DNA of 64,000 nt, taken from IMG/VR virus record IMGVR_UViG_3300037516_001127, positions 33,544 to 97,543 of that record; one strand, written 5' to 3'. Positions 6,444 through 37,808 of this stretch are shown piece by piece. The stretch comes from a virus. Made by a program: the position numbers and the translations under genes. The notes under the pieces were generated by a model. That model worked only from the letters and a program-made list of their open reading frames with translations, was not told the DNA's origin and made no database searches. Every line of letters starts with the position of its first letter. The first letter of the stretch is position 1.

Positions 6444-8678
6444 TCAGAGCGGTTTCATGTACTTGATTTCAGCTCCTTCGTTTCTGAATGTTTGTTCTGC
6501 GCCAGACCAAAAAAGTAGATCTCCGGCTTCTATCCAGTGGTTATCAAACTGCTCATCTCTTGCTGCTGCTACGAGGCGGGCTAGTTCTTTGGCTTCTGTT
6601 GCAGAACGAAAAACCTCATAAGGCACATCTTCGCTTATAAGCCCAGAAGAGCGATCTCCCTCAATTGCATTTCTCGTTACCACTCTAGTTGCCATTATCG
6701 GCCCTGGTTTATTAGCCATAATCTCATCACGATGGTTTTCCAAAGCCGCCTCAAGGATATCCAAAAATTCTTCCTTTTGATCCTCGTCAAGCCAATCAAA
6801 CCCGTTCCGAGGCCAATGCGTAGCACCCTTCATAGTCGGACCACTATTACCAGTAACTTCAATCATCTCCATGCCCATCCGCCGATAATATTCTTCGTTT
6901 CTAGCGTTAAAAGCCGAACCAATACCTAAACCTTGAGAATCATCATTTATAAATAATCTTTCATGCTGAACTACACCATCTGATCGAAAAAGCCGAGTAC
7001 TAGACCCAACTGGCATACCATCGCTAGATCGCAGCATCATTACAACAGAAACCCCAGACTCATCAAGATACGTTCGGCTCACATCACCCAAATAGGTTTT
7101 ACCATCAGCCGCTACAAATTCCTGAATCATCAACTCATCAAAAAATTCGGTCCAATTACGAATATTACCGGATTCCTCACCAAACCGAATTTTCTCCTCA
7201 TCCCAATTCGCATGGGCCAAAGCGTAATCCTCATACCCATCATCGCTACTTTCAAAATCGCTTAGTCGAGGTTCAGGATTTTCGGAAAGCCAATCATTAA
7301 GATCGCTAGCCGGATCTTGATAAGGCTCAAACTCGGAAGGGGAAACATCTGCTAAAAGGCTTTCTATGTCAGTGCTCATTTCTGGAGGTGCAGCTTCTAT
7401 AATTGCAGCTTTTTGTTCAGCGTTTTTGCGTCGCTCAAGAAAAGCCGCCTCGGCAGCAGCATCAAAAGCTTCTTCATCCAAATCACCAGAAATCAAAGTT
7501 TTTTCGATTAACTCATTTTTCTTAGATTCAAAAACCGCTGTGCGTTTCTTCTCATGATCCCGAACTGCTCTTTCAAGAGCCTTTGCAGCGTTTTGTTCTC
7601 TTTGAGTATTTTGAGCAATGGATAACTGCCTATCCGAATCAGCCGCTAACGCATAATCTTCTTTGGCTTTAGCAGCAGCTGCTTCCCAGGCTTGAATTGC
7701 TTCTTCATAAGCTTTTTCTATTTCAAAATCTGTTAAAGAAATAGGAACACCTATAGCGTCATCAAACTGATCGTTACCTGTCGGAGCTTCAAAAGTCGTG
7801 CGTTCAGGAAAAGGATGAGCATCCAGCCACCAGCTAAGATAACCAGATTGACGCCTAGCTATTTCTTCATCAGTTAAAACAGGAAGTTTTTCAATTAAAA
7901 ACTGTGGATCAGTTTCTTTCGGCAAAGGATTATCTTTATCCCATTCCTCCATATGCGAAATCAAATCTGAAGAAGCAGGAACCTTCGGAGCATCAGGTTT
8001 ATCTTTAACAACTTCAGGGCCTACACTTGTAGGCTCTGGTTTATTTGCCCGCTCCGCCAATCTAGAAGCACGCAACGCCGCCTCTTCTCGCGCCCTAGAT
8101 GCCTGCAAACCTGCATAAAAAGTTCGGGCTTTGGATTCCCACTCTTCCATCGCAGTAAACCGGGTAACCGCATGTTCACGAATCGCCTGCCTATCCGCAG
8201 CAGTCAATCGCCCGCTTGGCATGCTAGAAGTTGGGACAGGGTTTTCTTCATCCCATTTACGTTGAAAAGCGTAACGGGCAGCATCAATATCTTCGTTAGA
8301 CATAACGAGCGGGAATTCATTCTTTGGCTCATCAGGTTTTGCTGTTTCAGCTTTTGGGGCAGGAGCGCTAACACGATTAGCTACGCGTTCATCTACCGAT
8401 GTTGTACTGATTGGCTTTGGCTCTGCGTCACTATCAGGCTTATCAACAGGTTTTGGCTTCTTAGGCTTAGGAACTTTAACCGGATTCTTAGGCCGTTCCT
8501 GATTCGTGCCTTCCTGAAGCAACCCATCGTTATCAGCATCATCGGCATCAGGGTCGAACCGGGCAACACGAATGTTCTTAGGACGCTTAATCTTCCCAAT
8601 ACCTCTTTTGCCAGCATCAGATAGCCTGCCGCCAAAATCTGCTTTAAACTCAAAAGATTCGCCATCCAACTGTTTCAT
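6444..8678 (-). CDS. Putative virion-packaged protein: shared DxDxD-QEGT-ERP motif plus C-terminal GNAT-like domain
   Basis: FDPDADDADNDGLLQEGTNQERP at aa 41-63; HERLFINDDSQGLGIG and GATHWPRNGFDW. Confidence 0.7.
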   Translation of the reverse strand: MKQLDGESFEFKADFGGRLSDAGKRGIGKIKRPKNIRVARFDPDADDADNDGLLQEGTNQERPKNPVKVPKPKKPKPVDKPDSDAEPKPISTTSVDERVANRVSAPAPKAETAKPDEPKNEFPLVMSNEDIDAARYAFQRKWDEENPVPTSSMPSGRLTAADRQAIREHAVTRFTAMEEWESKARTFYAGLQASRAREEAALRASRLAERANKPEPTSVGPEVVKDKPDAPKVPASSDLISHMEEWDKDNPLPKETDPQFLIEKLPVLTDEEIARRQSGYLSWWLDAHPFPERTTFEAPTGNDQFDDAIGVPISLTDFEIEKAYEEAIQAWEAAAAKAKEDYALAADSDRQLSIAQNTQREQNAAKALERAVRDHEKKRTAVFESKKNELIEKTLISGDLDEEAFDAAAEAAFLERRKNAEQKAAIIEAAPPEMSTDIESLLADVSPSEFEPYQDPASDLNDWLSENPEPRLSDFESSDDGYEDYALAHANWDEEKIRFGEESGNIRNWTEFFDELMIQEFVAADGKTYLGDVSRTYLDESGVSVVMMLRSSDGMPVGSSTRLFRSDGVVQHERLFINDDSQGLGIGSAFNARNEEYYRRMGMEMIEVTGNSGPTMKGATHWPRNGFDWLDEDQKEEFLDILEAALENHRDEIMANKPGPIMATRVVTRNAIEGDRSSGLISEDVPYEVFRSATEAKELARLVAAARDEQFDNHWIEAGDLLFWSGAEQTFRNEGAEIKYMKPL

Positions 8679-8684
8679 TTTGAT

Positions 8685-8984
8685 TTACCGACGGGCCCTT
8701 TGCTGCTTGTAATCAGCCAGAATGTCGCGCTCTTTAGGCTTCTGCTTCTTCACATAAAAATAGGCGTCACGCGGTTCACGACCAAAAAAGTTTAGGAAAT
8801 CTGTTCGCCAGTCACGATCCCCCTCCAAATACATCAACATCAAATCATCCTGAGAAACAAAAGAATCTTCCAACGCCCCAGTTAAAGCACGAAAATCGTT
8901 TCGCTCATGCGGACCCATGCTCGCCTTCTTCAAAAGGTCACGAACACGCCTAGCAACAGCATCATCAATATCTTTAGGTTTCAA
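8685..8984 (-). CDS. Hypothetical protein (99 aa)
   Basis: AGGAGG RBS, TTG start, 6 nt before the next gene. Confidence 0.7.
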   Translation of the reverse strand: MKPKDIDDAVARRVRDLLKKASMGPHERNDFRALTGALEDSFVSQDDLMLMYLEGDRDWRTDFLNFFGREPRDAYFYVKKQKPKERDILADYKQQRARR

Positions 8985-9049
8985 AACAGCCTCCTATGCG
9001 ACTATAGTCTAGCTTGGTATCATCATTAATTTTGTAAAACAGGGAACTC

Positions 9050-9811
9050 ATGCCAACTTTTCAAGAAATGACAGAACCACCACCGGAACCAGGACCAGCA
9101 GACTGGAACGACGAAGGTGTTGTTATCAAGAAAAATTTGCTACCTGAAGAAGTACTTACTAACTACGAACAGTTTTGGCTTACCCAACACTCAGAAAACC
9201 CAAAAGGCTGGCCAGACTGCTTACCCTATATGAGACACCAAGAAGTTGCAGACCTTTACTGCAGATCAGAAATTCAAGAAGTTATCACAGAGCTACTAGG
9301 ACAACCAGCAGGACTCCACCTATGCCTCACAGGATGGGTCACCACCACTAGAAACTGGCACCAAGACTCATACCTAAACCCACATTTTGTTGGAGACAAC
9401 TATGTGGCCGTATGGATCGCCCTAGCTGACATACATCCAGACTCCGGGCCGTTCCAATATGTTGCCGGGTCACACAGATGGCCACAAGTTACCTTTTCAA
9501 AGATTTCGGAACATGTCGATACGACAGACCCATTATGGCCAAGCCATTCAGAACAAATACTTACCCCGATTTTTGAAGAAGAAATAGAAGCCAGGAATGC
9601 GGAAATCACAACCTACCTTCCGAAACGTGGTGATGTCTTATTCTGGCATGGCCGTCTCATGCACCGTGGATCTCTTGCTAATACACTAGACATGGAACGA
9701 CGGGCAGCAATAGGCCACTACTCGGGTATAAGCTCCAGACCAGACATGCCTAAGCCAGAAAAATCTGGTGGTGGATGGATCTTCCCTATTGGCGAAAAGC
9801 TTTACAGATAG
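9050..9811 (+). CDS. PhyH-family Fe(II)/2-oxoglutarate dioxygenase
   Basis: WHQD, VAVWIALAD, SGPFQYVAGSH, GDVLFWHGRLMHRG. Confidence 0.9.
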   Translation: MPTFQEMTEPPPEPGPADWNDEGVVIKKNLLPEEVLTNYEQFWLTQHSENPKGWPDCLPYMRHQEVADLYCRSEIQEVITELLGQPAGLHLCLTGWVTTTRNWHQDSYLNPHFVGDNYVAVWIALADIHPDSGPFQYVAGSHRWPQVTFSKISEHVDTTDPLWPSHSEQILTPIFEEEIEARNAEITTYLPKRGDVLFWHGRLMHRGSLANTLDMERRAAIGHYSGISSRPDMPKPEKSGGGWIFPIGEKLYR

Positions 9812-9823
9812 AAGGACTAAACA

Positions 9824-10396
9824 ATGGAATTGTTAAATGTTGGCTGCGGCACACATTATGCTAAAGGGTGGGTAAATACTGACACCTGGGAAACTGATAC
9901 GATTAAGCCTGATGTGCGAGTTGCCCCAGGTGAGCCGTACCCGTTTGAAGATAATACGTTTGACGCTGTTTACCTTGGTCATGTCCTTGAACATATTGCT
10001 TGGCCCCAAGTTGCCGCATTTTTGAAAGACATATCGCGTGTAGCTAAAACTGACGCAAAAATTTTGATAACAGGCCCTGATGTCTACAAAACCATAAAAC
10101 GTTGGTCAGATGGACAAGAACCGTGGTGGCTAGTTGAATCCGTTATGGAACAACAAGGGGTTAATTCAACCCCAGGAACAGTCGAATGGTGGGACGGAGC
10201 TTCACACCACTGGAACTGCCACAATGATCGGGTCCTAAAGCTGTTAGAAACCCTGGGTTTCACAAACATCAAAGACCGCTTTAACGATATCCCCAAAAAC
10301 ACTTCTGGTAAAACCTGGAAAAACGATGGGATTACTTGGCCTGTTGTAGGCTTCTGGCACTGGCAACTTGCTATAAGCTGCAACAACCCAAAGTAA
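9824..10396 (+). CDS. Class I SAM-dependent methyltransferase
   Basis: LNVGCG motif I, PFEDNTFDAVYLGHVLEH. Confidence 0.88.
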   Translation: MELLNVGCGTHYAKGWVNTDTWETDTIKPDVRVAPGEPYPFEDNTFDAVYLGHVLEHIAWPQVAAFLKDISRVAKTDAKILITGPDVYKTIKRWSDGQEPWWLVESVMEQQGVNSTPGTVEWWDGASHHWNCHNDRVLKLLETLGFTNIKDRFNDIPKNTSGKTWKNDGITWPVVGFWHWQLAISCNNPK

Positions 10397-10400
10397 AACC

Positions 10401-10667
10401 TCAGGTCTTAACGTAATTCGAAACAGCCTCAGACAAAGCGTCATGCGTTTCGCTGCTCGGATTATTCAAATACCGCACAGCTGCTTGTGCCGTATAATGC
10501 GATGCCACAGTATGCGGCAAACCCGCTATAAGTATCCCTAGCTGAGACCAAGCATTAGCAAGTTTTGGATCACGATTTTTTAAAGCCGTAAAACTTTCGC
10601 CAGCACAATAAACCGGATCAGGCAAATTGATTCCGTTTGAAGAATCTTCGCTTTCAAGATCAATCAT
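10401..10667 (-). CDS. Hypothetical protein
   Basis: ORF overlapping the upstream gene by 8 nt. Confidence 0.6.
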   Translation of the reverse strand: MIDLESEDSSNGINLPDPVYCAGESFTALKNRDPKLANAWSQLGILIAGLPHTVASHYTAQAAVRYLNNPSSETHDALSEAVSNYVKT

Positions 10668-10923
10668 TATCTACCCTTTTCATGTAGTCAATATAGGCCT
10701 CAATTGACGGCCAAACAGTTTCCAACACAACACGAACCGTGCAAGTCCCACAATGATAGATATCTTCATAGCGAGCGTCACGGTCATCAGACCAATCATC
10801 GTCATCAAAGTCCTGCAATTCGAGGATCTGACCTGCTTTAATAACTGATTCATCAATCAGCTTCAGATAATACAACTCATCAAATTCTTCTTCAACACGC
10901 TTCTTACGCTTAAATATGCTCAT
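10660..10923 (-). CDS. Hypothetical protein (HCGTC)
   Basis: GGAGG RBS, promoter just upstream. Confidence 0.7.
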   Translation of the reverse strand: MSIFKRKKRVEEEFDELYYLKLIDESVIKAGQILELQDFDDDDWSDDRDARYEDIYHCGTCTVRVVLETVWPSIEAYIDYMKRVDND

Positions 10924-10947
10924 TTGTCCTCCGTAGATAGTTGGCAG

Positions 10948-10976
10948 ACCATACCACCCCCTGATATACCTGTCAA
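10948..10976 (-). promoter_or_regulatory. Sigma-A-type promoter
   Basis: TTGACA-17-TATGGT. Confidence 0.6.
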
Positions 10977-11047
10977 CAATCTAAAATGCCAAAAGATTCA
11001 CATGATAGCGACACTGCCGCTTCGCCAATCACGACTATGGTCATAGC

Positions 11048-11353
11048 ATGTATTACTCAGCAGACAACGAACTTATGCTGGGAAACGTCCAAGTCGCCAG
11101 AGCGGATCGGCTACCATGTCCAATCTGCGGTCACCCAACAGGGGACTGCACAGGGACAGGTCATGCCCCCATTCACGTCCTGGGCCCAGACGCATACATA
11201 TCAATGGACTACGAAGAAACCTTTATAGTTAAAGAAGATGTCTACGAAAATCGTTGGATTTCCCCCTACACAGAATGTAGGGTAAAAGTAGCTGTAGCCG
11301 GAACAGCGATACCGCTTTCCAAAGCTAAAGCCCTCGGTCTTACTAGCATTTAA
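11048..11353 (+). CDS. Hypothetical Cys-containing protein
   Basis: CPICGHPTGDC. Confidence 0.7.
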   Translation: MYYSADNELMLGNVQVARADRLPCPICGHPTGDCTGTGHAPIHVLGPDAYISMDYEETFIVKEDVYENRWISPYTECRVKVAVAGTAIPLSKAKALGLTSI

Positions 11354-11387
11354 ATTCAACTATCCAACATCAATACAGGAGTTAACC

Positions 11388-13304
11388 ATGATTACACCCG
11401 AGTTCCTTGAATCTTACGACGCCCAAATCCCGCCCTGGGGTTTCGGTGGCATGGGCGAGGCAACAATGCTTAGAACATATTCACGTCCAATCGCAGGACT
11501 GGACCGGAACGAAACTTGGCTTGAAGTTTGCACCCGTGCAGTCAATGGGGCAATCGACATCGGAGCCGAACTCAGTACAGAAGACGCCGAAAAGCTTTTT
11601 GACCACATGTATAACCTTCGCGCATGCGTCTCAGGCAGAGCACTCTGGCAACTGGGCACACCACTAGTTGAAAGAATGGGCGGAGCAAGCCTCCAAAACT
11701 GCTACTTCAGCGACGTCGAAAAGATCGAAGATTTCGAATTCATTTTTGACATGCTAATGGTCGGAGGCGGAGTCGGATTTTCTGTAGAACGATCAAAGAT
11801 CCACGAACTACCAAAAGTAAAAAATGGTGTATCCATCACACATGAGCGCAGCAACGATGCCGATCTTATCGTCCCAGATAAACGAGAAGGTTGGAGCCGC
11901 CTCCTGCACGCAGTACTCAAATCATACTTTTACACAGGAAAGTCTTTTAGCTACTCAACAATCCTAATCCGAGAATACGGTGCGGCCCTCAACTCTTTCG
12001 GCGGAACAGCTTCAGGGCCAGGAGCGCTAATCGAAGGCATCGAAAAGATTTGCAAAATCATGGATAACCGGATTAGCAAAAAGCTTCGATCCATTGACGT
12101 CCTTGACATCGTCAACATCATTGGCGAAATGGTCGTCGCAGGCTCATCCCGACGTTCAGCCCAGATTGCTATTGGCGACCCAGATGACATCCTTTTCCTC
12201 CGAGCTAAGAACTGGGAATCAGGGACCATCCCAGGATGGCGTGGAAACTCAAATAACTCCATCTTTGCTGACGGTTGGGAAGAAATCCCGACCGAGCTTT
12301 GGAAGGGATATCAAGGTACTGGCGAACCTTATGGGCTTATTAACCGCAAGCTGGCTAGGAAAGTTGGTCGCCTTGGTGAGGTTATGCCAGATCCGAGTGT
12401 TGATGGTTTCAATCCGTGTGCCGAAATTGCGTTGGCTTCAGGAGAATCTTGCAACCTTGCAACGCTTTTCCTGCCTAACATTCGTTCGTTTGAAGAGTTC
12501 TGTGAGATTAGCCGACTCCTATATTTGGTTCAGAAGTCGACAACAGAACTTTCGTACCCTTACGAAAAGACAACTAAAATTGTTCGTAAGAACCGGCGTC
12601 TAGGACAGTCAATCACTGGCGTTTTGCAGTGTAGCGAAGAGCAGCTTTCTTGGCTTGACCCAGGGTACAAGGCTCTCCGTAAGCTTGACGCAGAGTACTC
12701 TGCTGAGCATGGTATCCCCGAGTCGATCAGACTGACAACTGTTCAGCCGTCTGGGACGCTCTCAATCCTTCCCGGTGTCCTCCCAGGGGCGCATCCAGGG
12801 TTTGCCCGCCACTATGTGCGGCGTGTCCGGTTCGGGTCCAACGATCCGCTTGTGAAAGCTTTGCGTGAACGAGGCCATGATATCGAATATGACATGAACC
12901 TTGATGGGACAAGAAACCATACCCGCCAAGTAGTTTCATTCCCTTGCATGTCCCCAGAAGGATCAATACTCGCAGAGGAACTTTCCGCTATCGACCAGAT
13001 GGAATGGGTGAAACGCCTTCAAACCGAATGGGCTGACAACGCTGTGTCGGTAACAATCTATTACCGCAAGCAAGAACTCCCAGAAATCCAGGAATGGCTT
13101 TCAAACAATTACAACAACTCAGTCAAATCCATGTCTTTCCTACTTCATCAGGACCACGGTTTCGCATTGCCTCCTTATGAAGAAATCGACGAAGAAGGCT
13201 ACAACAAGATGCTCGCAAAGATCGACCCGACCGTTCCCCTTGTCAAAACCGAAGGCGAACTGATCGACGACAACTGCGACACAGGCCACTGCCCGGTCCG
13301 GTAA
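11388..13304 (+). CDS. nrdJ: Class II (B12-dependent, monomeric RTPR-type) ribonucleotide reductase
   Basis: RTYSR, LQNCY, LMVGGGVG, RRSAQI, NPCAEI, TVQPSGTLS, C-terminal CDTGHCPVR. Confidence 0.95.
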   Translation: MITPEFLESYDAQIPPWGFGGMGEATMLRTYSRPIAGLDRNETWLEVCTRAVNGAIDIGAELSTEDAEKLFDHMYNLRACVSGRALWQLGTPLVERMGGASLQNCYFSDVEKIEDFEFIFDMLMVGGGVGFSVERSKIHELPKVKNGVSITHERSNDADLIVPDKREGWSRLLHAVLKSYFYTGKSFSYSTILIREYGAALNSFGGTASGPGALIEGIEKICKIMDNRISKKLRSIDVLDIVNIIGEMVVAGSSRRSAQIAIGDPDDILFLRAKNWESGTIPGWRGNSNNSIFADGWEEIPTELWKGYQGTGEPYGLINRKLARKVGRLGEVMPDPSVDGFNPCAEIALASGESCNLATLFLPNIRSFEEFCEISRLLYLVQKSTTELSYPYEKTTKIVRKNRRLGQSITGVLQCSEEQLSWLDPGYKALRKLDAEYSAEHGIPESIRLTTVQPSGTLSILPGVLPGAHPGFARHYVRRVRFGSNDPLVKALRERGHDIEYDMNLDGTRNHTRQVVSFPCMSPEGSILAEELSAIDQMEWVKRLQTEWADNAVSVTIYYRKQELPEIQEWLSNNYNNSVKSMSFLLHQDHGFALPPYEEIDEEGYNKMLAKIDPTVPLVKTEGELIDDNCDTGHCPVR

Positions 13305-13655
13305 ATGGGCTTACAAGCATTAGCTCTAGCAGGTGCCCCAGCCCTGCTAGAGCAAGCTTCACAACTAGTAACTAAAAGAGGCCTAGCTAAAGGCATCACA
13401 TACGACAACGGCTCAATAGACGCCACTGGGGCACTATGCCTAGCAGGCGGAGCTAAAATAAAAACACTAAACGAAGACCCCATAGCAGAACTATCCACAA
13501 TCAAAAGACCACTAGTACTAGTAATAGTAGAAGCGTTAGAAGCAGAACTAGACTCCGACCTTCACACCTGGAACGACCTACCTACCACCACCACAAACAT
13601 GGTAGCCGCCACGTTCAAATCTTTAGCAGACAAAATATCCATAGCCACAACATAA
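13305..13655 (+). CDS. Hypothetical protein (DUF6197-like)
   Basis: RGLAKG...DATGAL...TWNDLPTTT pattern. Confidence 0.55.
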   Translation: MGLQALALAGAPALLEQASQLVTKRGLAKGITYDNGSIDATGALCLAGGAKIKTLNEDPIAELSTIKRPLVLVIVEALEAELDSDLHTWNDLPTTTTNMVAATFKSLADKISIATT

Positions 13656-13666
13656 CGGCACACGCG

Positions 13667-13691
13667 AAAGAGCCCCCTCCGAAGAAGGGGC
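13667..13691 (-). terminator. Intrinsic terminator after the major capsid gene
   Basis: Minus strand GCCCCTTC-TTCG-GAGGGGGC-TCTTT (UUCG tetraloop). Confidence 0.75.
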
Positions 13692-13714
13692 CCGATCAAC
13701 TGCTTCAGACTAGA

Positions 13715-15043
13715 TCAGTCAGGAGCGCCATCGAAGTCAACCTTAACGAATGACTCAGGACGCTTCGTCGCAAGTGCCAAACGCTGCTCCGCAAGGATCA
13801 CGATAGCGTTACGAACGAAGAAGTCTGCATGCTGCTCCGAAATACGGATGCTTGCCTGCTCCCGATCGTAAATCTGTGCTCCAGTACCGAACGCACCCAC
13901 AAGAGCAGTGCCCTCAGGGATAGCAGGAGTGTCAACGATTGGCATACGCCAGATACGGGCCTCAGCACCAACCTGCATGGACATCGCCATGAGGTAAGTA
14001 CCCTGCTCGTTCTTCGTAAGCTCAATGTCTTCCCAATCGTTCGGGTGGAGAACCACACCGGACGGCTCGTAGTAAGCAAGGAAAGCAAGAGTAGCCGAGC
14101 GGCGCAGAGCGTCACCCTTCGAGTCAGGAACTGGCAGGGTCGCACCTTCGGACCATGCATACTCCTGAACACCAGCGTTCAAGATACCGAGAAGGTTCTC
14201 GCCGGTTCCATCACCCGAAAGGATTTGGTAATCCTCCTGGAGACGAAGACCATAAAGAAGCTCGTTATCAATGATTGAACGAAGCTGAGGCTCATCAGCC
14301 AGAACGTTACGGTGAGCAGCTTCCCAGTGCGCAAGAGTGCGAACCGGAGCCTGCTGACCAACGAACTGGAAGCTCGACTGAGGCTTAAGACCAAAGTCGC
14401 CGCCATTACGCTCAGCAACAGTAGAAGCCGCATTCACAGCAGTCGTCTCAGGAGTCGTGAATCCACGCATCTGGAAATATTCAATCACTGCAGCAGTGGT
14501 TGTGCGTGAAGGGAAAAGATCCCGAACACGACGAGTACGCATCGGCGGAATGACCATGTCGTCACGCTGAATCGTGCCGAACGCACCAGGAGTTCCAGTG
14601 GGAAGACCCGAGTAAACGTCCTTCTGTCCCCACATCGCACCAACATCGGAACGCTCAAGGACGAACGGCGCTGGCATGTTTGCCCCACCACGACCCGAAT
14701 CAAGAGACTTGAATTCTGGTGAATCCAAGAACAACTGACCGAGCGACTTGCCCTGAGGAGCCCAAAGACCAGAAGCGGAATCTGCGGCAACGCTAGCTGC
14801 GACAGACTCAGACTGTGCTTCAGAACCCCAAGCGTCTAGCGTCTTCAAAGATTCCATGCCCTCAATGAGAGACTTGATTTCCTTGATGTCAACCATGTTC
14901 TTATCAAAAGCTGACTTCTGCTCAGTTGTGACGATGACAGTTCCATCTTCGATGCGGAAATCATCAGCAATCTGACGATTCTCAGCAGTCTTGGATCGAA
15001 GTGCACCCTGTAGTTCCCGCAAGCGGCTTTCATCAAATGACAT
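13715..15043 (-). CDS. Major capsid protein (HK97 fold)
   Basis: Coiled N-terminus; APVRTLAHW, VLADEPQLRSIIDNEL, GDGTGENLLGIL, FVRNAIVILAEQR, RPESFVK. Confidence 0.95.
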   Translation of the reverse strand: MSFDESRLRELQGALRSKTAENRQIADDFRIEDGTVIVTTEQKSAFDKNMVDIKEIKSLIEGMESLKTLDAWGSEAQSESVAASVAADSASGLWAPQGKSLGQLFLDSPEFKSLDSGRGGANMPAPFVLERSDVGAMWGQKDVYSGLPTGTPGAFGTIQRDDMVIPPMRTRRVRDLFPSRTTTAAVIEYFQMRGFTTPETTAVNAASTVAERNGGDFGLKPQSSFQFVGQQAPVRTLAHWEAAHRNVLADEPQLRSIIDNELLYGLRLQEDYQILSGDGTGENLLGILNAGVQEYAWSEGATLPVPDSKGDALRRSATLAFLAYYEPSGVVLHPNDWEDIELTKNEQGTYLMAMSMQVGAEARIWRMPIVDTPAIPEGTALVGAFGTGAQIYDREQASIRISEQHADFFVRNAIVILAEQRLALATKRPESFVKVDFDGAPD

Positions 15044-15134
15044 TAGATTTTCTACTCCTCTATTGAGCGGTTAATTGGATTGACCCTCAGCGTAGGTTAG
15101 CACCTAGCTTTATACAGCCGATGGTAGACAACTA

Positions 15135-15163
15135 AGTATACGATGTAGTGCAGGTTTTGTAAA
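15135..15163 (-). promoter_or_regulatory. Putative promoter of the capsid gene
   Basis: TTTACA-17-TATACT. Confidence 0.55.
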
Positions 15164-15186
15164 CTTTTTGATAAAACTCTTATAAA

Positions 15187-15549
15187 TTATCTTCTGGTAC
15201 CTTTAGAACGACGAGTAGCCATTTCATCAGATGGCACCCGCTTAGAGATACGATCACCTACAGAATCAGAAACCTCCGGCCCGCCAGGACCCTCAGCCAT
15301 ATACTCCCCAGGAGACCCAGATACATACTTCTGATAATCCCTAAAAAGCTCCTTAGACTTATCACTCCTACTGTAATAATTTAAAGCCGCCAAATATATG
15401 TCCCTCTTCTCCTCAAAATTTTCAGAATCAGAAGAAAAAACCTCAGCCAAACCCAAAATATGAGAACGCTTAAAAGCAGAACCAATGTTAATAAACTTAA
15501 CCAGGATGCTCATCTTTTCTACGTCTGTAAATTCGCTCATGCTTCCCAC
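15187..15549 (-). CDS. Small hypothetical protein coupled to the 1332-aa gene
   Basis: Overlaps the stop of 15537..19535. Confidence 0.7.
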   Translation of the reverse strand: MGSMSEFTDVEKMSILVKFINIGSAFKRSHILGLAEVFSSDSENFEEKRDIYLAALNYYSRSDKSKELFRDYQKYVSGSPGEYMAEGPGGPEVSDSVGDRISKRVPSDEMATRRSKGTRR

Positions 15550-19798: not shown

Positions 19799-19837
19799 CT
19801 TTTTCTCCTATTTAAAATATTTGTGAAACCTAAAAAA

Positions 19838-25495: not shown

Positions 25496-25497
25496 AA

Positions 25498-25677
25498 CTA
25501 ACCCTCATCAACAGAATCAGAACCCAAAGTAGCTGGCATATCCAGAATAGCCTGAATCTCAAGCTGAACCTTAGGGTCCTCCAGAATAGCCTGCTGAGAA
25601 TAACGATGAGGAATCATAGAAAGCTTCGCAACACGTTCCCAATTCGTATTTTTATTCAAACCTGAAAACGAAGTCAC
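25498..25677 (-). CDS. Small hypothetical protein (59 aa, not in ORF track)
   Basis: GTG 25677 after AAAGG; MTSFSGLNKNTNWERVAKLSMIPHRY...GSDSVDEG; fills the gap almost exactly. Confidence 0.7.
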   Translation of the reverse strand: MTSFSGLNKNTNWERVAKLSMIPHRYSQQAILEDPKVQLEIQAILDMPATLGSDSVDEG

Positions 25678-25687
25678 AAATCAACCT

Positions 25688-28207: not shown

Positions 28208-28209
28208 AA

Positions 28210-31200
28210 CTATGAACGCTGCCTTTCATACAAAACGTTATCATCGCCATCGCCGATCACAAGAACTTCATATTCACTTATACACCCAAAGCCAAGCATT
28301 GACAAAGAAAAAAGTCTTGATCGAGGCACGTCCATATGGAAAGTGTGTTCACCAAAAGCTTGTTGGGTAATCGTGGCAAACGAAGATAAACCATTCCATT
28401 GGGCTATAGCATCTACAGCCCAACCCTTCCCAACCGAAGCATCCAAAGCCCACGAGATATCACCATCAGTCGAATCAAGCGATCTTAAAATAACCATCAA
28501 ATCGCCCACTTCATTTCTAGCACTATCATGTGCTGTCTGAGCCGACCTGTATCTTTCCAAAAGCAACGTTTGAGCAGGGCTTAAAAATTCACCAGCCCGT
28601 GCAGCTCTGACAGTCTCCGCCCATAGAGGATTAGCATAAATTTTTTCTAATTCATCACCAAGCAACTCTTTGTTCTGCTCAGTCAAATTAAGCTCATCGA
28701 CAGTTGCAGTTCTTTTTTTCTCAATTTCCATTTGTAACTTTTCAGCTCGTGGAGTATCAGCAATTCTGTCTGGTCCTACAGTCATTGCACGACTAAGCCG
28801 AACTATTCCATCTTCAGTTATTCCCATATTTTCTAAATGGTTTTGAGTCGTCGAATAAATTGCTTTAGCTAAAATCTGGTAATCATTAGCAACTTGTTCA
28901 AGATCTTCAACTTTTCCTCCTGGAAGAAACCTAGAAGCACCACGAGGAGGAGTCCTAAAAGCAGAAAAATCTTTTCCAGCACCTCGTGAACCAACCAGTT
29001 TTGCGACAGCCACAGACATCATCCAGGCTTTCCCGGTATCCGAACCAACTGCCCATTTAGAATTCAACTCATCAAAAATAAAAACGGCTTTAGCTCTGTC
29101 GGAAATAGAATCACTAACAATGCCACGGGTTTTAATTTCTACCATAAAAGCATTAAGAAAATCATAATGTTCTACGTCTTTAGAAACCCCAACACTGGAA
29201 TCTATAAACGGGTTTGAAAACGGATCTTCTAACGGATCTACAAGCAGAAAGCCCTCTTGAAACCTATTTACAGATCGAACAAACTCATATGGACTCTCAT
29301 TATCAAAAATCCTATATAAAGCGTCTCTAACAGAAGGATCAGATTCGATCATAGCTAGTAGCGTTTCAGCCGAAGACAATGCTGAAATTTGCTTACTAAG
29401 AGCACTTCCAACCTCACTAAGAACAATAGGCTTATACGATCCGTCATCATTCTTAGGCCTGTCAGGAGCATACAAAATGGAAGATATAAAAGCTTCTTTT
29501 ATATCTTCACGACTAAAATCTTGTGGCAAAGAACTTACATACGATTCAGCTTCATCTCTAGCAATCTGACGTTCCGCCGCATGATCGGCCTCAAGCTGAT
29601 CTCTCCGCTTACGCACATTTTTTAGAAGGTCGCCTAATTTCTTAGAAAGCTCATCACTCCCATTATTAACAGAATCTATTTGCGCCGAAATCTCTTGCAT
29701 TTTTTGCATATCAAAATCGCGATCAGCCTCCCTTCGGGCTTTCAATAAAGATTGCTGTTCATCATATAAAGCATATAGGGCGTCAGATAACTCTAAAGCC
29801 TCTTTATCACCAGCTAATGGCCCATCATCAGGCGTACTCCTATCAGGAATCTGAGATTCCCAATCAGGATTTTCTGCTGCCCGTGCATCAAAATTTCTAA
29901 CAAACTCAGGAATAGGATTATCCTGTTCCCATTTTCTGACAATTTCTTCCACCTTAGCTTGTATTATAATTCTTTCCATCTCAGCACTTGAAGAACCTTC
30001 AAAATTTGGGACTACAAAATCTAAGACAGTAGATAACGTTTCCCTATGCTGAGAATCACTCATTGGGCCATCAACCTTGCTACCCCATGTAGACATATCT
30101 GAAGGATCAAACTCGTCCTCATCAATACCGGGGTCAAGAGTGTTAAGAACTTGAAAGATCTCATGAATGCCAGCAGAACCATTATGAAAATCAGCTTCTT
30201 GGTCCTCAAAAACATCTTTTGGAACAGAGTACAAAGGGTCAACTTTAAGAATTTCGTCAAAAATAGTATCAGGAAGAACAGCCGTAGGATTATTATCTGC
30301 ATCAGGAATATCAAAAATTTTAGACTTTCCAACAAGCATAGAAACACCACTAGCATCAATATCCCTATCAAAAATGATACGAGCGGCAGCAGCTACCGTA
30401 GCGTCATCGTAATTAACTAAAAGTTTGTGCATAGGGTTATAATCAGCCGGGTAGGCGTCCATCTTGTCGACTTTGCCTTCAAGTTCCTGAATAGCTTTTA
30501 CTAAATCAGAGACTTCTTTAGAAACAGGTTCGGGTGGCTCGATAACCGAAACAGCAGGAGGAACCCAGTTTTCAATCTCAGCAATAATCTCAGGGTTATC
30601 AGCTACAAGTATTTCACCCTGCACAGTCCCAAACCGGCCAAGAACCAGTTCATTAGGTACATCTCGCCTAGCCCATCTTGAACCCCACTCGTCGCTGTCC
30701 TTCTCCACAACAGACCAGGAAGTGATTCCTGCATCTTCAGCTTCATATCCTGATTCGTTGCTAGACCCATATCCGAGCCCAGACTGATTTGGTTCGGTTC
30801 CTGTTTCGCTAATTAAATCACCAGAGCGGTACAAGCGAATAGCCGCATATTCGTCTCCGGCGACTTCATCAACATAGCGGCGACGAACTAGTTGCAAAAA
30901 TCGCATAACGTCAGGATCACGTTCCGATTCTGGCGCTTTTAAAGTAACTGAGATAAGCTGGCGCGCACGCATAGCATACTGCCAAGCCCCAAAATTATCT
31001 TCAGTATCACGAAAGTCTTCGTTATCATCAACAATTGACGGATTTGCTTCAAATAAGGCTTGCAGGCTTAGGTATATGTCTCGCTGTGTTGCATTTGCCG
31101 ATTCTTCTGCTGAGCCGAACCACAGCTCTGGCTTCACCAGATAGGCACCCTTATACGCTACGTTTCTTATTAAAGCCCGCTCTTCCGGTGAACCATCAGC

Positions 31201-33459
31201 GAAAATGTCACCTCCCACTCGGCGGTCCCACTCAGAGAGAATTTCCCAAGGCTCTAAATCGGAGAAACTAGCTCGGATTGTGTCTTCTCCAAAAACGCCT
31301 TCGGGAAGGTCCGTATCAACAAACCTGCTCGAAGGATCATTATAAGTATCCAATATCTGCCGAGCAGGACGCAGGCTAGAGAACCCGTCACGAGGAGAAA
31401 GCCGCTCCGAAATCCGCTCCGAAACCAAACTCCCAACACCAGGCTCAGAAACCTTATCCCCATCAAAACTAGAAACCTCAGACACCCGAGGCCTATCAAC
31501 AACTCTCCGCATAAAATCAACAAGCGCCTGCCCAGAATCGGAAAGCCCCTCAGTATCAGCATCCAACATCACAGCAGTAAAAGTCTCAGCAAAAGACTCC
31601 AACTTATTCGTAATAGAATATTGTGATATTTGCTGATTTTTAGGAATATTCAACTGCGTTACAGCATCAATAATCCGTTCAGCTTCCGCTTCCTCAGACT
31701 CGTCAAAGTAACCAGATTTTTTAGCACGATCTAGCGCTAACCGCATATCCTTTACGTTTAACCAGGTCGATTCTGGATCACCAAGCATTACAGATTGCCA
31801 GTCGTCTTCAAGTTGGCTTAACTCCTCCCAACTTTCATCTTGATAGTTATCCCATATATCTTGAAGGGCTTGCATTTCGGAGTAATAGTCAGCTACTAAC
31901 CGATCCCATTCTCTGCTAAGGTCAGTAACCGAAACCATCGGCGTAACATTGTTATTAATGACTTCGTGGAACGCGTGTCCCATCTCATGGACGACAGTAG
32001 CGACATGGTCATCTGGGCCACCTTTAATAAGGAATTCGCCTGTGACCCTTTCGGTCGCATTCGGTTCTGACCTCAGAATATAGGCACCAGTTTTTGGTTC
32101 AAAGTCATCGACAACCCCAAAGGTAACAACACCTTCGTAATATTGCCCAGCGACACCACCCGCCCAGTGAGAACCAGCGTGTGACGCTAAAACCACTAGA
32201 GGAATAGGATTGTCATACTTCTCAAAAAGTTGTGCGATTGGAGAATCAGGACCAAACTCGCTTTCAAAAACACTTTGCAGGCTCTCGGCAAGAGCAATTC
32301 CTTCTGGGGATGATAACGCTGCTACTGCGTTTTCATGACCAAACATTTCCCGATGCCGGTCTTCCCAAAAGGTATCTAAATCTTCATCCGTTTCTAAATC
32401 AGCATTAGGAGCAAGTATATCTTTTGATTCTCTTTCCTCATAAGCTCGTAGAAATTCATAAAAATTAGAAGGATCACCATGAATGGCTTGTTCAAGAAGC
32501 AAATCATCAGAATCCTTATATTGAGAATCTATATAATCACTAATATCTTTTAGATCTAATCTACCGGAATCTGATATAGGAGGATTTGAAACTACATCTT
32601 GCCAGGGGATATCTGGATCTAAATCATCAGAAAAAACTATTTCATCAACCCCTCTCGAACCATACCTTTCGAAAGCTGATTGCAATGCTAAACCTTTGAA
32701 ATAATCTACTGCCCAATCAGGTTCATCAACCTTTAACAGATTATACAGAAGCTCTTCAAATTCTCTATCAGGTAACTCATCAAAATGTGACTGCTGCAAA
32801 AGCAATCGATCTCTCATAACTTGCAATCTGCCCATTGCTGCCTCACGAGGCGAAACAGCAAGCCTGGAACGATCCCAAATCTCTTCATCTTCAGCTAACG
32901 CAGCAGCAATAGTTTCTAAACTTTCACGCGCCAATTCAATGTCTTGCCTAGTTTCCCAGTCTTCATTACCAAATCTAAATTTGGCGTTGAGTTGATCAAG
33001 CCTAGCTTGTATCTCTAATGCGGCAGCTTTGGCTTCCTCTTGCGCCTTTGCGTTATCCTCTTCTTCTACTCTAAGAATTTCATCGAAGTCGGGTTTAGCA
33101 GATCCCTTTTTACGCTTAGCAGGCTTTTTAGGCTTTTTAACTAAAGAAACAAGCTCACGGGCAGGACTATTGTCATCAAGTGGGTTACCCGACAGCACAC
33201 TCCCAGGGACTTCGAGCTTTGGCTTGGCAGGCCGCTCGTGAATTGTCCCATCCTGAATCAACCCATCAGCATCAGCGTCATCAACCACACGGTAAACGGC
33301 AGGACGTAAAACCCTTTTTAAAGGATTCCTACCCCCAGCATTACCGCCACGCCGCCTACCAATACGACTACCTCGAAGACCCCTACCCAAAATTTTTGAT
33401 TCAATATCAACAAACAACTCGTCGACAGTTACGTCATCAATGTCAGTACGTTCAAACAT
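28210..33459 (-). CDS. Polyvalent protein (~1749 aa): shared motif, zincin metallopeptidase, two ART-like domains
   Basis: Start re-called at ATG 33459; DDADADGLIQDGTIHERP; VVHEMGH...ISQYS..ESFAE; IRLYRS..ITSWS..GEILV; VRLSRA..LSSFAT..EYEVLV. Confidence 0.72.
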   Translation of the reverse strand: MFERTDIDDVTVDELFVDIESKILGRGLRGSRIGRRRGGNAGGRNPLKRVLRPAVYRVVDDADADGLIQDGTIHERPAKPKLEVPGSVLSGNPLDDNSPARELVSLVKKPKKPAKRKKGSAKPDFDEILRVEEEDNAKAQEEAKAAALEIQARLDQLNAKFRFGNEDWETRQDIELARESLETIAAALAEDEEIWDRSRLAVSPREAAMGRLQVMRDRLLLQQSHFDELPDREFEELLYNLLKVDEPDWAVDYFKGLALQSAFERYGSRGVDEIVFSDDLDPDIPWQDVVSNPPISDSGRLDLKDISDYIDSQYKDSDDLLLEQAIHGDPSNFYEFLRAYEERESKDILAPNADLETDEDLDTFWEDRHREMFGHENAVAALSSPEGIALAESLQSVFESEFGPDSPIAQLFEKYDNPIPLVVLASHAGSHWAGGVAGQYYEGVVTFGVVDDFEPKTGAYILRSEPNATERVTGEFLIKGGPDDHVATVVHEMGHAFHEVINNNVTPMVSVTDLSREWDRLVADYYSEMQALQDIWDNYQDESWEELSQLEDDWQSVMLGDPESTWLNVKDMRLALDRAKKSGYFDESEEAEAERIIDAVTQLNIPKNQQISQYSITNKLESFAETFTAVMLDADTEGLSDSGQALVDFMRRVVDRPRVSEVSSFDGDKVSEPGVGSLVSERISERLSPRDGFSSLRPARQILDTYNDPSSRFVDTDLPEGVFGEDTIRASFSDLEPWEILSEWDRRVGGDIFADGSPEERALIRNVAYKGAYLVKPELWFGSAEESANATQRDIYLSLQALFEANPSIVDDNEDFRDTEDNFGAWQYAMRARQLISVTLKAPESERDPDVMRFLQLVRRRYVDEVAGDEYAAIRLYRSGDLISETGTEPNQSGLGYGSSNESGYEAEDAGITSWSVVEKDSDEWGSRWARRDVPNELVLGRFGTVQGEILVADNPEIIAEIENWVPPAVSVIEPPEPVSKEVSDLVKAIQELEGKVDKMDAYPADYNPMHKLLVNYDDATVAAAARIIFDRDIDASGVSMLVGKSKIFDIPDADNNPTAVLPDTIFDEILKVDPLYSVPKDVFEDQEADFHNGSAGIHEIFQVLNTLDPGIDEDEFDPSDMSTWGSKVDGPMSDSQHRETLSTVLDFVVPNFEGSSSAEMERIIIQAKVEEIVRKWEQDNPIPEFVRNFDARAAENPDWESQIPDRSTPDDGPLAGDKEALELSDALYALYDEQQSLLKARREADRDFDMQKMQEISAQIDSVNNGSDELSKKLGDLLKNVRKRRDQLEADHAAERQIARDEAESYVSSLPQDFSREDIKEAFISSILYAPDRPKNDDGSYKPIVLSEVGSALSKQISALSSAETLLAMIESDPSVRDALYRIFDNESPYEFVRSVNRFQEGFLLVDPLEDPFSNPFIDSSVGVSKDVEHYDFLNAFMVEIKTRGIVSDSISDRAKAVFIFDELNSKWAVGSDTGKAWMMSVAVAKLVGSRGAGKDFSAFRTPPRGASRFLPGGKVEDLEQVANDYQILAKAIYSTTQNHLENMGITEDGIVRLSRAMTVGPDRIADTPRAEKLQMEIEKKRTATVDELNLTEQNKELLGDELEKIYANPLWAETVRAARAGEFLSPAQTLLLERYRSAQTAHDSARNEVGDLMVILRSLDSTDGDISWALDASVGKGWAVDAIAQWNGLSSFATITQQAFGEHTFHMDVPRSRLFSLSMLGFGCISEYEVLVIGDGDDNVLYERQRS

Positions 33460-33772
33460 CAGAAACACCTTCAGCCCGAGGCTTGACAACAGCTTTATCC
33501 ATAGGCGGATTCATACTTGACAACAAAGAAACAATTTTCTCATCAGCAACATTCTCAAAAACAAAAAACTCTGTAACACTCTGAGAAGAAGGCTGATTAT
33601 GATAAACAGCATCTTTTGGAATATCAAAAAGCTTACTCGAATAGCTAAATGCTTGACCATCCAAATACTCTTCATAGGTACCTGGCTCACGACAAATATA
33701 GGCATGAAAAATGCCCAACTCGGGATGCTTGTAAAAATAAACAATAGGGTAAACAGGTCGTTCAGCAGCCAT
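33452..33772 (-). CDS. Small hypothetical protein
   Basis: Starts 2 nt after the upstream kinase stop, overlaps the next start. Confidence 0.72.
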   Translation of the reverse strand: MAAERPVYPIVYFYKHPELGIFHAYICREPGTYEEYLDGQAFSYSSKLFDIPKDAVYHNQPSSQSVTEFFVFENVADEKIVSLLSSMNPPMDKAVVKPRAEGVSDV

Positions 33773-33774
33773 AA

Positions 33775-35640
33775 CTAGCCCACAATCTCTCGTCGTAACT
33801 GCCGCAAAACTTCGCTTGGCCTATCCTTCAAAGCTTGTAATCTTGCCTCGGCGACTATCCGAACAGCTTCAAGATGCTGCAACTCTTCAGAAGTCAAAAT
33901 TTTTCCTTTAGATGAAATCCGATCAACAGAAAGAATCATATCTAAACTTGTTTCAAGACGCTCAATAGCGTTCTCAACTGCAGCATTAAATTTTCGGGAG
34001 CGTACAGCATCATTCAAAAGATTCAAATTTCTATATTCAAAAGGACGACGCACGGCACTTCTTGCATAATCCTTATATGAAACAGGGGTTACTCTTTCTC
34101 TTTCGGCAAGCTGACCCACAAGCCTTATACCTAGAGTACCCACGACCGGATTTGACCCCCCATACAACAAGCCGTTATCAATCAAACCTAGTCTTAAACG
34201 CCCATCCTCATCTGTTCGAGCCATAAAATTATGCAAATGCCGATCCGTGTTATCAAATATGTAATCCATAACTAGCATTCGAGCCAGATCCCCAGGATCA
34301 ACTTTTTTAGATTTTGCTCCACTTCCGTTTATAGCCCATTCTTCCCATTTGCCAGCAGCGCGACTCGAAGGCTTATGGTCAAATTCCCAATCATCAATTG
34401 ACCTCATCATCATCCAGCGGTACGGCCTAGCAGAACCAGCCCGGTCGACACTTTGACCAACTCTAAAATTGTTTTCACGGTTGCCAAAACCTAAAACCTC
34501 AGAAGCCTTATTGCCAATATTTTCAAGTAAAGCATCATTATTGCCATAACTAGAAACTTTCACATACCAGACATCGTTATTCACCGAGTCAACAACTCTA
34601 AGTACCCGCCAAGGCTTTACACTTGAAAGGTTTCTTTCATCTTTAATTACTTCAAAATTGAATCTCCGATTTTTAAATTTAGTCTTATTACGCATAAGCC
34701 CATTTGGGCCTTCAGCCATAACTAAACTTTCTTTTGTCAACGGAACACCAGAAGGAGTTGCAAGTTCTAAATTTTCGTCAAATAAAACATCAATAATATG
34801 CTCATCGGCAACATCAGTTATATCCCCACCTTTTTCATAAACATGCTTAAGGCCCTTTTGATAATCTTGAATTCCCCATTTCTTAGCCCGTCGCGTTTTC
34901 GGTGCGCCACCTGGATCGATACGCCCGGCAAGCCTCTCTAAAGCTGAAGCAAAGAACTGGCGGCGAGGAGCGTCAGGAACCTGCACAGCAGATGGACCTG
35001 ACCACGAAGAAGGGGGAGGAGGGACATTAACAACAGCCTGCGAAGCACGAGGAGCAGGAGCGCCACGAGCAGCACGCACAGCAGGACTGCTACCACTAGG
35101 AACATCAACAGCATTAGCTATACGGTCAAGTATCCCCTGACGCCTAACAGGCTTCGCAGCACGCCTCTCACGCAGAGCTGCAACCAGGCGGCTAGGACCA
35201 ACAGGACGCTCCCACCGAGTGCCTTCCTGACGCCTCAGATCGCTATCACCATCTCGGGAGTTCGGATCATACCGAACAGGCCTACGCCTAGCCTTGCCAA
35301 ACCCCAAAACCTTGTCTTCAAATCCGTTTAAACGAAAATCAATTGAAGAAACAATTTTCTCGTTATAAAAATCTGACTTACTATCAACAGACCCCTGTTG
35401 ATAACTAAGTTTTTGGAAATCAGCCCACACCGAATCATCCAACGGTTCAGGCCCAGTAACAACCAACGAAGGGTTACTAATCGCCGACTTGATACCCTCT
35501 AAAGACGCAGGTTCCGACTCCGACCAAACAGCAAAATCTTTTAACGTACCAGAACCCGCTGCCAAAATATCAAAAGCATGTTCAATCACAATAGCCTTTG
35601 AACCAGAAAATGGATCAACAATAGTAATAGCATTAGTCAT
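33775..35640 (-). CDS. Putative virion-packaged protein: shared motif plus HipA/PI3K-like kinase
   Basis: YDPNSRDGDSDLRRQEGTRWERP; WYVK..ENIGNKASEVLG; VMDYIFDNTDRHLHNF; LIDNG. Confidence 0.78.
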   Translation of the reverse strand: MTNAITIVDPFSGSKAIVIEHAFDILAAGSGTLKDFAVWSESEPASLEGIKSAISNPSLVVTGPEPLDDSVWADFQKLSYQQGSVDSKSDFYNEKIVSSIDFRLNGFEDKVLGFGKARRRPVRYDPNSRDGDSDLRRQEGTRWERPVGPSRLVAALRERRAAKPVRRQGILDRIANAVDVPSGSSPAVRAARGAPAPRASQAVVNVPPPPSSWSGPSAVQVPDAPRRQFFASALERLAGRIDPGGAPKTRRAKKWGIQDYQKGLKHVYEKGGDITDVADEHIIDVLFDENLELATPSGVPLTKESLVMAEGPNGLMRNKTKFKNRRFNFEVIKDERNLSSVKPWRVLRVVDSVNNDVWYVKVSSYGNNDALLENIGNKASEVLGFGNRENNFRVGQSVDRAGSARPYRWMMMRSIDDWEFDHKPSSRAAGKWEEWAINGSGAKSKKVDPGDLARMLVMDYIFDNTDRHLHNFMARTDEDGRLRLGLIDNGLLYGGSNPVVGTLGIRLVGQLAERERVTPVSYKDYARSAVRRPFEYRNLNLLNDAVRSRKFNAAVENAIERLETSLDMILSVDRISSKGKILTSEELQHLEAVRIVAEARLQALKDRPSEVLRQLRREIVG

Positions 35641-37733: not shown

Positions 37734-37808
37734 TTTAATCATTCTCCTTGTATTCACTTAAAGTTTTGACGTACCCAGGGTGGGCCTATATTACACGGAC
37801 ATCAGACC

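Follow-up and report, generated by a model that had tools for sequence, protein, structure and literature searches.

A conserved Asp-rich motif of uncultured phage proteins is a candidate N-terminal handle of protease-processed head cargo

Why do six large and otherwise dissimilar proteins of one phage carry the same short, Asp-rich motif near their N termini? The proteins are encoded in a 64-kb stretch of uncultured virus DNA (bases 33544 to 97543 of the 97.5-kb IMG/VR virus record IMGVR_UViG_3300037516_001127, the completeness of which is estimated at 66%); this whole stretch is called the window below. An earlier note on it had proposed the motif as a candidate capsid-targeting tag. The choice of cargo by tailed phages beyond T4 and the giant phages is, to our knowledge, largely unknown, and we know of no sequence signal for it in HK97-like phages. 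Here we argue, with confidence somewhat short of even, that the motif is a portable N-terminal handle of head cargo that is processed by a protease, and that the motif is retained after processing. Both the motif family and the Lys-containing box that precedes it appear to be undescribed.

A six-frame regular-expression scan of the window for Q[ED]GT..ERP gave exactly six matches, all on the minus strand and all within long open reading frames (ORFs). The positions agree with those given in the earlier note, and a profile search of the whole 97.5-kb record returned the same six copies only (E values from 7e-21 to 6e-14). Copy 1 (FDPDADDADNDGLLQEGTNQERP, 8490 to 8558) lies in a 744-residue protein (ORF 6444 to 8678) and copy 2 (YDPNAVDADADNLVQEGTNQERP, 19116 to 19184) in a 1332-residue protein (15537 to 19535). 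Copy 3 (25199 to 25267) belongs to an 1885-residue protein (19838 to 25495); copy 4 (27737 to 27811), in which two residues are inserted in the Asp loop, to an 839-residue protein (25688 to 28207); copy 5 (33229 to 33294), which is without the [YF]DP start, to a 1759-residue protein (28210 to 33489); and copy 6 (35203 to 35271) to a 621-residue protein (33775 to 35640). As the earlier note had it, the motif is N-proximal in all six, its Gln falling at residues 55, 132, 91, 149, 79, and 138, respectively.

The window copies align as [YF]DP[ND]AxD[AG]DxD[GN]xxQ[ED]GTxxERPxxP, with nine invariant columns (D, D, Q, G, T, E, R, P, and P). Over 69 nucleotides (nt), their DNA is 59 to 86% identical, with many synonymous differences; the copies are therefore not recent duplicates and, as had been claimed, the conservation is at the level of the protein. 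In pairwise comparisons, the six N-terminal regions had no detectable similarity beyond the motif and the short box upstream of it. Pfam searches of the six proteins yielded only kinase-like matches, to PI3K/PI4K-like kinases at the C-terminal ends of the proteins with copies 3 and 6, and no Pfam family fell over the motif, even at E ≤ 1. A further stretch that had been offered as a variant, DGDGDGRCEE at 48060 to 48089, was rejected: it is without the QEGT..ERP half, the profile did not find it at E ≤ 10, and it lies at residue 129 of an unrelated 437-residue protein (plus-strand ORF 47676 to 48989) that matched no Pfam family and in which Excalibur (PF05901) was absent at E ≤ 1.

The motif belongs to a large family. 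A profile of the six window copies found 50 proteins among 5.8 billion and, in IMG/VR, 193 stretches. When the profile was widened to 56 copies, it found 956 clusters at E ≤ 1e-3 in a set of 1.84 billion representatives, and 444 of these clusters also passed E ≤ 1e-10. Almost all of these clusters are on viral metagenome contigs, and in 185,579 prokaryote species (one genome each) there were only 13 stretches, all on contigs of metagenome-assembled genomes. Taken over 253 copies, the consensus is [RW][RG][GR]-L-R-x-E-P-[YF]-[DN]-P-[DN]-A-x-D-[AG]-D-x-D-G-[IL]-V-Q-[ED]-G-T-x-[WF]-E-R-P, in which D, D, D, G, V, Q, G, T, R, and P are each 91 to 100% conserved and the whole Q-[ED]-G-T-x-[WF]-E-R-P half is 86 to 100% conserved. 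The window copies are somewhat degenerate members of this family. In many of the proteins that begin with the motif (the N-terminal type), the module is stretched to about 75 residues, and true polyvalent proteins have a variant in which Tyr or Phe replaces the Gln. Searches of PDB sequences with both profiles gave chance matches only (GGA2, obscurin, and a hemolysin-related FG-GAP-like stretch). The nearest clusters in the ESM Atlas, gamma-glutamyltransferase fragments (score of 0.90, 150 shared features, below the reliability level), were also judged to be due to chance; the match covers a later hairpin of the extended module, not the motif.

Read as a DxDxDG loop, the first half of the motif has Asp at position 1 in 98% of copies, at position 3 in 97%, and at position 5 in 99%, Gly at position 6 in 94%, and Val at position 8 in 91%; Gln follows at position 9 and an acidic residue at position 10. 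Position 12 is Thr in 99% of the copies, not an acidic bidentate ligand. The Ca2+ loop proposed in the earlier note is thus recognizable in the Asp/Gly pattern of the family but not at position 12, nor is it intact at the Gly of the window copies. From this pattern, the motif probably binds Ca2+ through its DxDxDG loop.

Where the motif stands in the chain follows a rule. Among 192 family members that we fetched, the first copy starts within 10 residues of the N terminus in 95, within 20 in 122, and within 100 in 162. At least two copies are present in 56 of the 192, and the internal copies stand before each effector module. One such protein (P0120) reads portal, motif, motif, GNAT, ART-PolyVal, motif, and metallopeptidase in a single chain; another (P0054) reads motif, unassigned region, motif, Zeta toxin, and ADP-ribosyltransferase; a third (P0058) has RNase T and DUF3626. 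The partner regions are very diverse and include PI3K/HipA-like kinases, Zeta toxins, ADP-ribosyltransferases, GNAT, RNase T, ParB-N, KTSC, pentapeptide repeats, DUF3626, DUF7178, LysM, PG_binding_1, and DUF7936. About four-fifths of the family proteins have no Pfam match whatever, and Pfam showed no capsid or tail domain among the partner regions. The partner domains are typical of delivered effectors, not of structural proteins.

Overall, the motif occurs N-terminally, internally, C-terminally, and in tandem. Two copies in direct tandem head some small proteins (L047:2956-3465; P0071, P0075, P0076, and P0080). A 3404-residue motif protein (L005:9653-19867) has a very long pentapeptide-repeat region (Pfam E value of 4e-88) and may be a DNA mimic among the cargo.

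Many of the copies that are not at the N terminus are preceded by a conserved box. In five window proteins, K-[IVM]-[LF]-G stands 13 to 55 residues before the motif, with acidic residues ahead of the box and a Gly/Arg-rich spacer behind it; the sixth has a looser K-A-D-F-G. The Lys site and Gly/Arg-rich stretch of the earlier note are real features of these proteins. The boxes, all on the minus strand, are K12-A-D-F before copy 1 (8634 to 8645), K77-I-L-G before copy 2 (19296 to 19307; a candidate processing site), K24-M-F-G before copy 3 (25415 to 25426), K120-V-L-G before copy 4 (27839 to 27850), K32-I-L-G before copy 5 (33385 to 33396), and K110-V-L-G before copy 6 (35302 to 35313). With a position-specific scoring matrix (PSSM) for the box that was trained on other phages, the loose box before copy 1 scored 5.7 and those before copies 4 and 5 scored 10.2 and 10.0.

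The box is also found in relatives. Over the 75 residues that lead up to an internal copy, K-x-[LFM]-G has eight times the density that it has in the rest of the same proteins. On a looser definition, K[ASG] at 8 to 40 residues upstream, the box precedes 90 of 123 internal copies (73%), compared with 29% at random positions. The logo of these boxes is [ILV]-[ED]-x-K-A-L-[GR]-R. Counted from the Lys, the aromatic residue of the motif is most often 8 to 13 residues away, the same spacing as from the initiator Met in N-terminal copies. Moreover, Ala follows the Lys in 73 of the 90 internal sites, just as it follows the initiator Met in 70 of 98 N-terminal proteins. Cleavage behind the Lys would thus leave internal modules with the Ala-first N terminus of the stand-alone proteins. 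These matching ends are hard to explain unless proteolysis exposes the internal copies and the motif needs a nearly free N terminus.

Natural fusions point to the enzyme. In six dereplicated clusters, an S78 protease domain is fused in front of ...ETATK-ALG, a Gly/Arg stretch, the motif, and the cargo, and the separate protease protein of the window ends at the position of the Lys in the ...ETATK of these fusions. An AlphaFold model of a protease-motif fusion places the box at the edge between a folded domain and a disordered stretch. When the 192 fetched proteins were searched locally for fusions to the protease or MuF, the portal fusion P0120 was the only one to come up. In HK97, the protease cleaves the capsid protein at the K103/S104 bond, which is in an unstructured stretch (PMC10275583); since the S78 prohead protease is homologous to that enzyme, it is the likeliest cutter here. 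From these patterns, we infer cleavage after the Lys of the box, with the S78 protease as its agent. Because the candidate site is upstream of the motif, and no conserved site comes after it, the motif would stay on the mature protein. The likeness to the T4 targeting tag that the earlier note drew thus extends to an N-terminal element on unrelated proteins but not to its being a removable tag.

We propose the following scheme. A mature module would start with Ala-x-[RK]-L-[RK]-x-E-P, sometimes followed by a Gly/Arg-rich spacer, and continue with [YF]-[DN]-P-[DN]-A-x-D-x-D-x-D-G-[IL]-V-Q-[ED]-G-T-x-[WF]-E-R-P. Stand-alone proteins would have this N terminus straight from their Met-Ala start; proproteins, polyproteins, and protease or portal fusions would acquire it by a cut after the Lys of hydrophobic-[ED]-x-K|A-L-[GR]-R. 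In the window proteins, which would be of the proprotein type, a short acidic pro-piece is followed by the Lys box, then by a Gly/Arg spacer and the motif, and finally, after a Pro-rich linker, by the enzymes. The retained motif would fold around Ca2+ and serve as a handle for bringing each cargo module into the head or keeping it there; the portal-MuF protein and the capsid interior are candidate partners, and at infection the motif may also guide the module out together with the DNA. That such modules are placed in the prohead is indicated by the natural fusions to the prohead protease or portal, and the stand-alone proteins have nothing else in common that could serve as a signal. A stronger version, which we consider less likely than not, is that the Ala-start basic stretch plus the motif is by itself a sufficient, Ca2+-dependent signal for loading and ejection: any protein with it at a free N terminus would enter the HK97-type proheads of this phage lineage and reach the host along with the DNA, and in polyproteins a cut behind the box Lys would expose one such signal for each module.

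The genes of the window are arranged in keeping with a head operon. On the minus strand, the order is portal-MuF fusion (39994 to 42354), S78 prohead protease (37809 to 39896), proteins of 382 and 322 residues, five motif genes, and the major capsid protein (13715 to 15043). The motif genes of this run (621, 1759, 839, 1885, and 1332 residues, in that order, with small ORFs interspersed) fill 15537 to 35640, between the protease block and the capsid gene. The sixth, encoding the 744-residue protein (6444 to 8678, minus strand), lies apart from the main head operon and immediately precedes a WhiB gene. The capsid protein is closely homologous to HK97 gp5 (E value of 9e-49 to 1OHG), and the large terminase (42611 to 43945) is transcribed divergently. 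Between the genes for the capsid protein and the 744-residue motif protein, the minus-strand block from head to tail is broken by a plus-strand island of about five genes (9050 to 13655). On the far side of the island, the gene for the 744-residue protein is followed by WhiB, a PAPS-reductase-like gene, ParB, neck genes, and the gene for a tail sheath. The neck and tail sheath genes mark the phage as a myovirus. Head genes are separated from neck and tail genes by the WhiB-like regulator (6018 to 6374), the PAPS-reductase-like gene (4822 to 5988), and the ParB-like gene (4283 to 4825). The closest portals of isolates are those of actinophages (37 to 41% identity), and WhiB genes recur close to the motif in relatives; both suggest an actinobacterial host. 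The lineage is probably one of uncultured HK97-like phages of actinobacteria.

Several proteins of the head operon deserve mention. The protease protein has 695 residues, of which the S78 domain takes up 25 to 168; the long C-terminal extension comprises a region that matches a separate gene of about 215 residues in relatives, followed by Cys-rich and very acidic stretches. Its C-terminal domain is also present in the protease-cargo fusions and has a possible role as a scaffold. Directly after the protease, the 382-residue protein (36609 to 37757) has two Cys clusters and long acidic runs and matched no family; its homologues (350 to 700 residues) accompany the protease in most related loci, and it could be a scaffold or decoration protein. 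In the alignment of the capsid protein with HK97 gp5, the stretches LKPQS/LKPES, FVRN/FVKN, and AEQRLALA/CEERLALA are conserved. We take these to hold the residues of the HK97 chainmail cross-link, and by this alignment the window capsid may be covalently cross-linked like that of HK97.

Sites like the Lys box occur elsewhere in the operon. In the portal-MuF protein, the Pro/Ala-rich linker between the portal and MuF domains contains VTEK-ALG at K576 and VDTK-ALP at K630 (within residues 576 to 633, 40456 to 40629). K630 is the best match to the box PSSM in the whole window, and the MuF domain may be freed from the portal by cutting during maturation. Seven of the 10 best PSSM matches in the window fall in head-operon proteins, which is weak support because that set of proteins makes up half of the window's residues. 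Near residue 100, [KR]-[ST]-[LIV]-G is present in most of the lineage's capsid proteins, and the candidate maturation sites of the window capsid protein are K99-SLG and K141-DVY.

What are the neighbors of motif genes in other phages? Gene contexts came from IMG/VR loci and 12 genome contigs, and for 109 dereplicated IMG/VR motif genes we compiled six genes on each side. The major capsid protein was a neighbor in 22 of the 109 neighborhoods, portal-MuF in 21 (as the directly upstream gene in 8), the large terminase in 17, WhiB in 14, and a primase-helicase in 12; three unnamed families that flank the window protease were also common. Head genes were thus enriched among the neighbors. For portal-MuF, the binomial P value was 2e-5 against an assumed background of about 7%, but this is not a true probability because the clusters are related and not independent. 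Genes of the internal type, with a pro-piece or domain before the motif, were near head genes or fused to the protease in 36 of 75 cases. Each of five large relatives had one portal-MuF fusion; in four large relatives, the motif genes are tens of kilobases from the single portal-MuF gene. In siphoviruses, small motif proteins of 87 to 114 residues have their genes between that of the major tail protein and one of the Neck1 type; other small proteins combine the motif with LysM or PG_binding_1. The siphovirus proteins (L023:9878-10165, L034:9806-10150, and L052:8101-8364) share a conserved NTRTGK..VPDHY.GH start and a Lys-rich stretch, and they carry the motif at the C-terminal end.

Several results weigh against a head-cargo handle. 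The N-terminal-type genes were near head genes in only 7 of 34 cases and beside a primase-helicase in 10 of 34, so that the products of these genes could be early effectors that are not packaged. MuF was found in none of five incomplete contigs, among them two siphovirus contigs that encode small motif proteins. AlphaFold2 gave no fold or docking, either for a 103-residue extended module (predicted local distance difference test [pLDDT] score of 57, below 50 over the motif) or for a natural protease-motif fusion (pLDDT of 30 to 39 over the motif). The window copies keep the loop Asp residues, but their Gly position reads G, N, G, N, G, and L. Although K99-SLG of the capsid protein resembles the box, the equivalent of HK97 K103 is nearer the invariant K141, which leaves the capsid maturation site ambiguous. 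Finally, short-query tblastn of motif segments against 50,697 isolate phage records gave no real match, an absence that is weak evidence because the low-complexity filter may mask short queries. Matches to a Gordonia "minor tail protein" in this search (E of about 0.2) were rejected, as no motif was seen when the sequences were read.

The likeliest of the alternatives is that the motif is a virion-independent element of early or host-directed effectors, a shared regulatory, localization, or host-factor-binding N terminus. It would account for N-terminal-type genes that are usually beside primase-helicase and regulator-like genes and far from the portal, for partners that are enzymes and not structural proteins, and for the lack of predicted docking. 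It does not sit well with the natural fusions to the prohead protease and the portal domain, with the clustering of internal-type genes with head genes, or with small motif proteins encoded between neck and major tail genes or joined to LysM and PG-binding domains. In addition, a DxDxDG loop would be largely free of Ca2+ at cytoplasmic levels, so that the loop of such an effector would be largely empty. We consider this alternative unlikely overall. For the handle, the profile search of viral metagenomes that the earlier note envisaged turned out largely as expected there: downstream regions are very diverse, portal-MuF, capsid, and terminase are among the commonest neighbors, and some motif proteins are fused to the prohead protease or a portal domain. 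Contrary to that expectation, N-terminal-type genes are mostly outside head operons. The capsid-targeting reading as a whole is partly supported, in that the proteins are probably head cargo and the motif probably a signal, but structure prediction adds neither a fold nor a docking site.

The coupling of box and motif could have another meaning. The motif might be an exosite only, positioning the upstream Lys-Ala bond for the prohead protease, while the pro-pieces or other contacts target the protein to the head. Box and motif are tightly coupled in spacing, and in the fusions the box follows the protease domain, as this explanation would have it. However, about half of the members have the motif at the very N terminus, with no upstream bond and with full conservation, and the pro-pieces of the window proteins have only the box in common. 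Compared with one another and with the capsid delta region, the 382- and 322-residue proteins, the protease tail, and the portal linker, the pro-pieces showed nothing in common beyond the Lys box. On this evidence, an exosite and nothing more is quite improbable.

We give similarly little credence to a generic role, in which the motif is a Ca2+-binding stabilizer or spacer of disordered linkers in externally exposed proteins and has no specific partner. The DxDxDG loop with its hydrophobic position 8, the placement of the motif between Gly/Arg-rich and Pro-rich low-complexity stretches, and its occurrence at N-terminal, internal, C-terminal, and tandem positions are all compatible with a spacer. 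Against this, the Q-[ED]-G-T-x-[WF]-E-R-P half, with its conservation of 86 to 100%, would be superfluous in a plain metal loop, and neither the strong N-terminal rule nor the equal spacing from Met and from Lys would be expected of a spacer. Last, a Ca2+-triggered element that, like FrpC, cuts its own [DN]-Pro bond is very improbable: the spacing is identical to that of FrpC and D or N precedes the Pro in 88% of copies, but conservation stops 14 residues past the loop, the flanks are of low complexity, the profile searches of PDB sequences miss FrpC (E ≤ 10), some copies have K, V, or I in place of D/N, and one window copy has no D-P at all.

The handle reading therefore remains the one that we prefer. 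Motif and Lys box together are a concrete candidate signal in about a thousand protein clusters of uncultured aquatic phages. If that reading is true, arsenals of packaged effectors (kinases, ADP-ribosyltransferases, Zeta toxins, nucleases, DNA mimics, and many unassigned domains) could be predicted from sequence alone, and the boundaries of modules in polyvalent proteins could be defined. If the motif were sufficient for loading, it would also be a small tag for placing foreign proteins in phage capsids.

How does the motif compare with known systems? The capsid targeting sequence of T4 is a short N-terminal element, of about 10 residues, on head-internal proteins (IPI to IPIII and Alt) that enter the host with the DNA, and it is cut off after use. 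In giant phages of the SPN3US type, ejection proteins are processed by the prohead protease. The sites are of the type LxE in T4 and AxE in the giant phages. The window proteins and their family resemble these internal proteins in having a short N-terminal element on unrelated proteins that is coupled to a (here putative) prohead protease cleavage. Unlike the T4 tag, the motif is about 30 residues long, has a Ca2+-loop pattern, and is conserved over hundreds of clusters; the predicted cut is upstream, so that the motif is retained, and the site is Lys-Ala-like and would belong to a protease of the HK97/S78 type. The analogy to encapsulin cargo-loading peptides that the earlier note also raised was rejected. 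Such peptides are usually C-terminal and bind an encapsulin shell that is encoded nearby; the present motif is instead N-terminal, and the shell, encoded along with portal, terminase, and tail sheath genes, is the capsid of a tailed phage.

Another parallel is the delta-domain cleavage of HK97 gp5; the window phage has homologues of both the protease and the capsid protein. We liken K99-S-L-G of the window capsid protein to a K-S-L-G that we take to begin at K103 of HK97. The difference from HK97 is that the same kind of site would here be used on cargo and polyproteins. With the loops of EF-hand-like and dockerin proteins, the motif shares Asp at positions 1, 3, and 5, Gly at position 6, and a hydrophobic residue at position 8; unlike them, it has Thr at position 12, an acid at position 10, no predicted flanking helices, and no Pfam or PDB match. 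The self-processing module of FrpC/ApxIVA has the identical D-P-x3-D-x-D-x-D-G spacing. In FrpC, D414-P415 is followed by D419, D421, D423, and G424, and a module of about 177 residues is needed, which includes three further EF-hand-like sites and the Trp pair W451/W519 (PMC7078468). The motif proteins lack the other 165 or so residues of that module and have no profile match to it, and the residue before their Pro is not invariant, being Asp in 69%, Asn in 19%, and Lys in 8% of copies.

Another comparison is with the polyvalent proteins (Iyer et al. 2017, PMC5512222), large multienzyme proteins whose genes accompany those of portal and terminase and which are predicted to be packaged and injected. 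P0120 is like them. A term search of that paper found neither "calcium" nor "linker." As with polyvalent proteins, five motif genes of the window share an operon with the genes for portal-MuF, protease, and capsid protein, and fusions to portal or protease are present in relatives. Several effector domains share a chain in the relatives P0120, P0054, and P0058; in the window, Pfam gave only kinase-like matches, in two of the six proteins. What sets the motif family apart from polyvalent or MuF-fused effectors is that its effectors are here mostly the products of separate genes, each headed by the motif.

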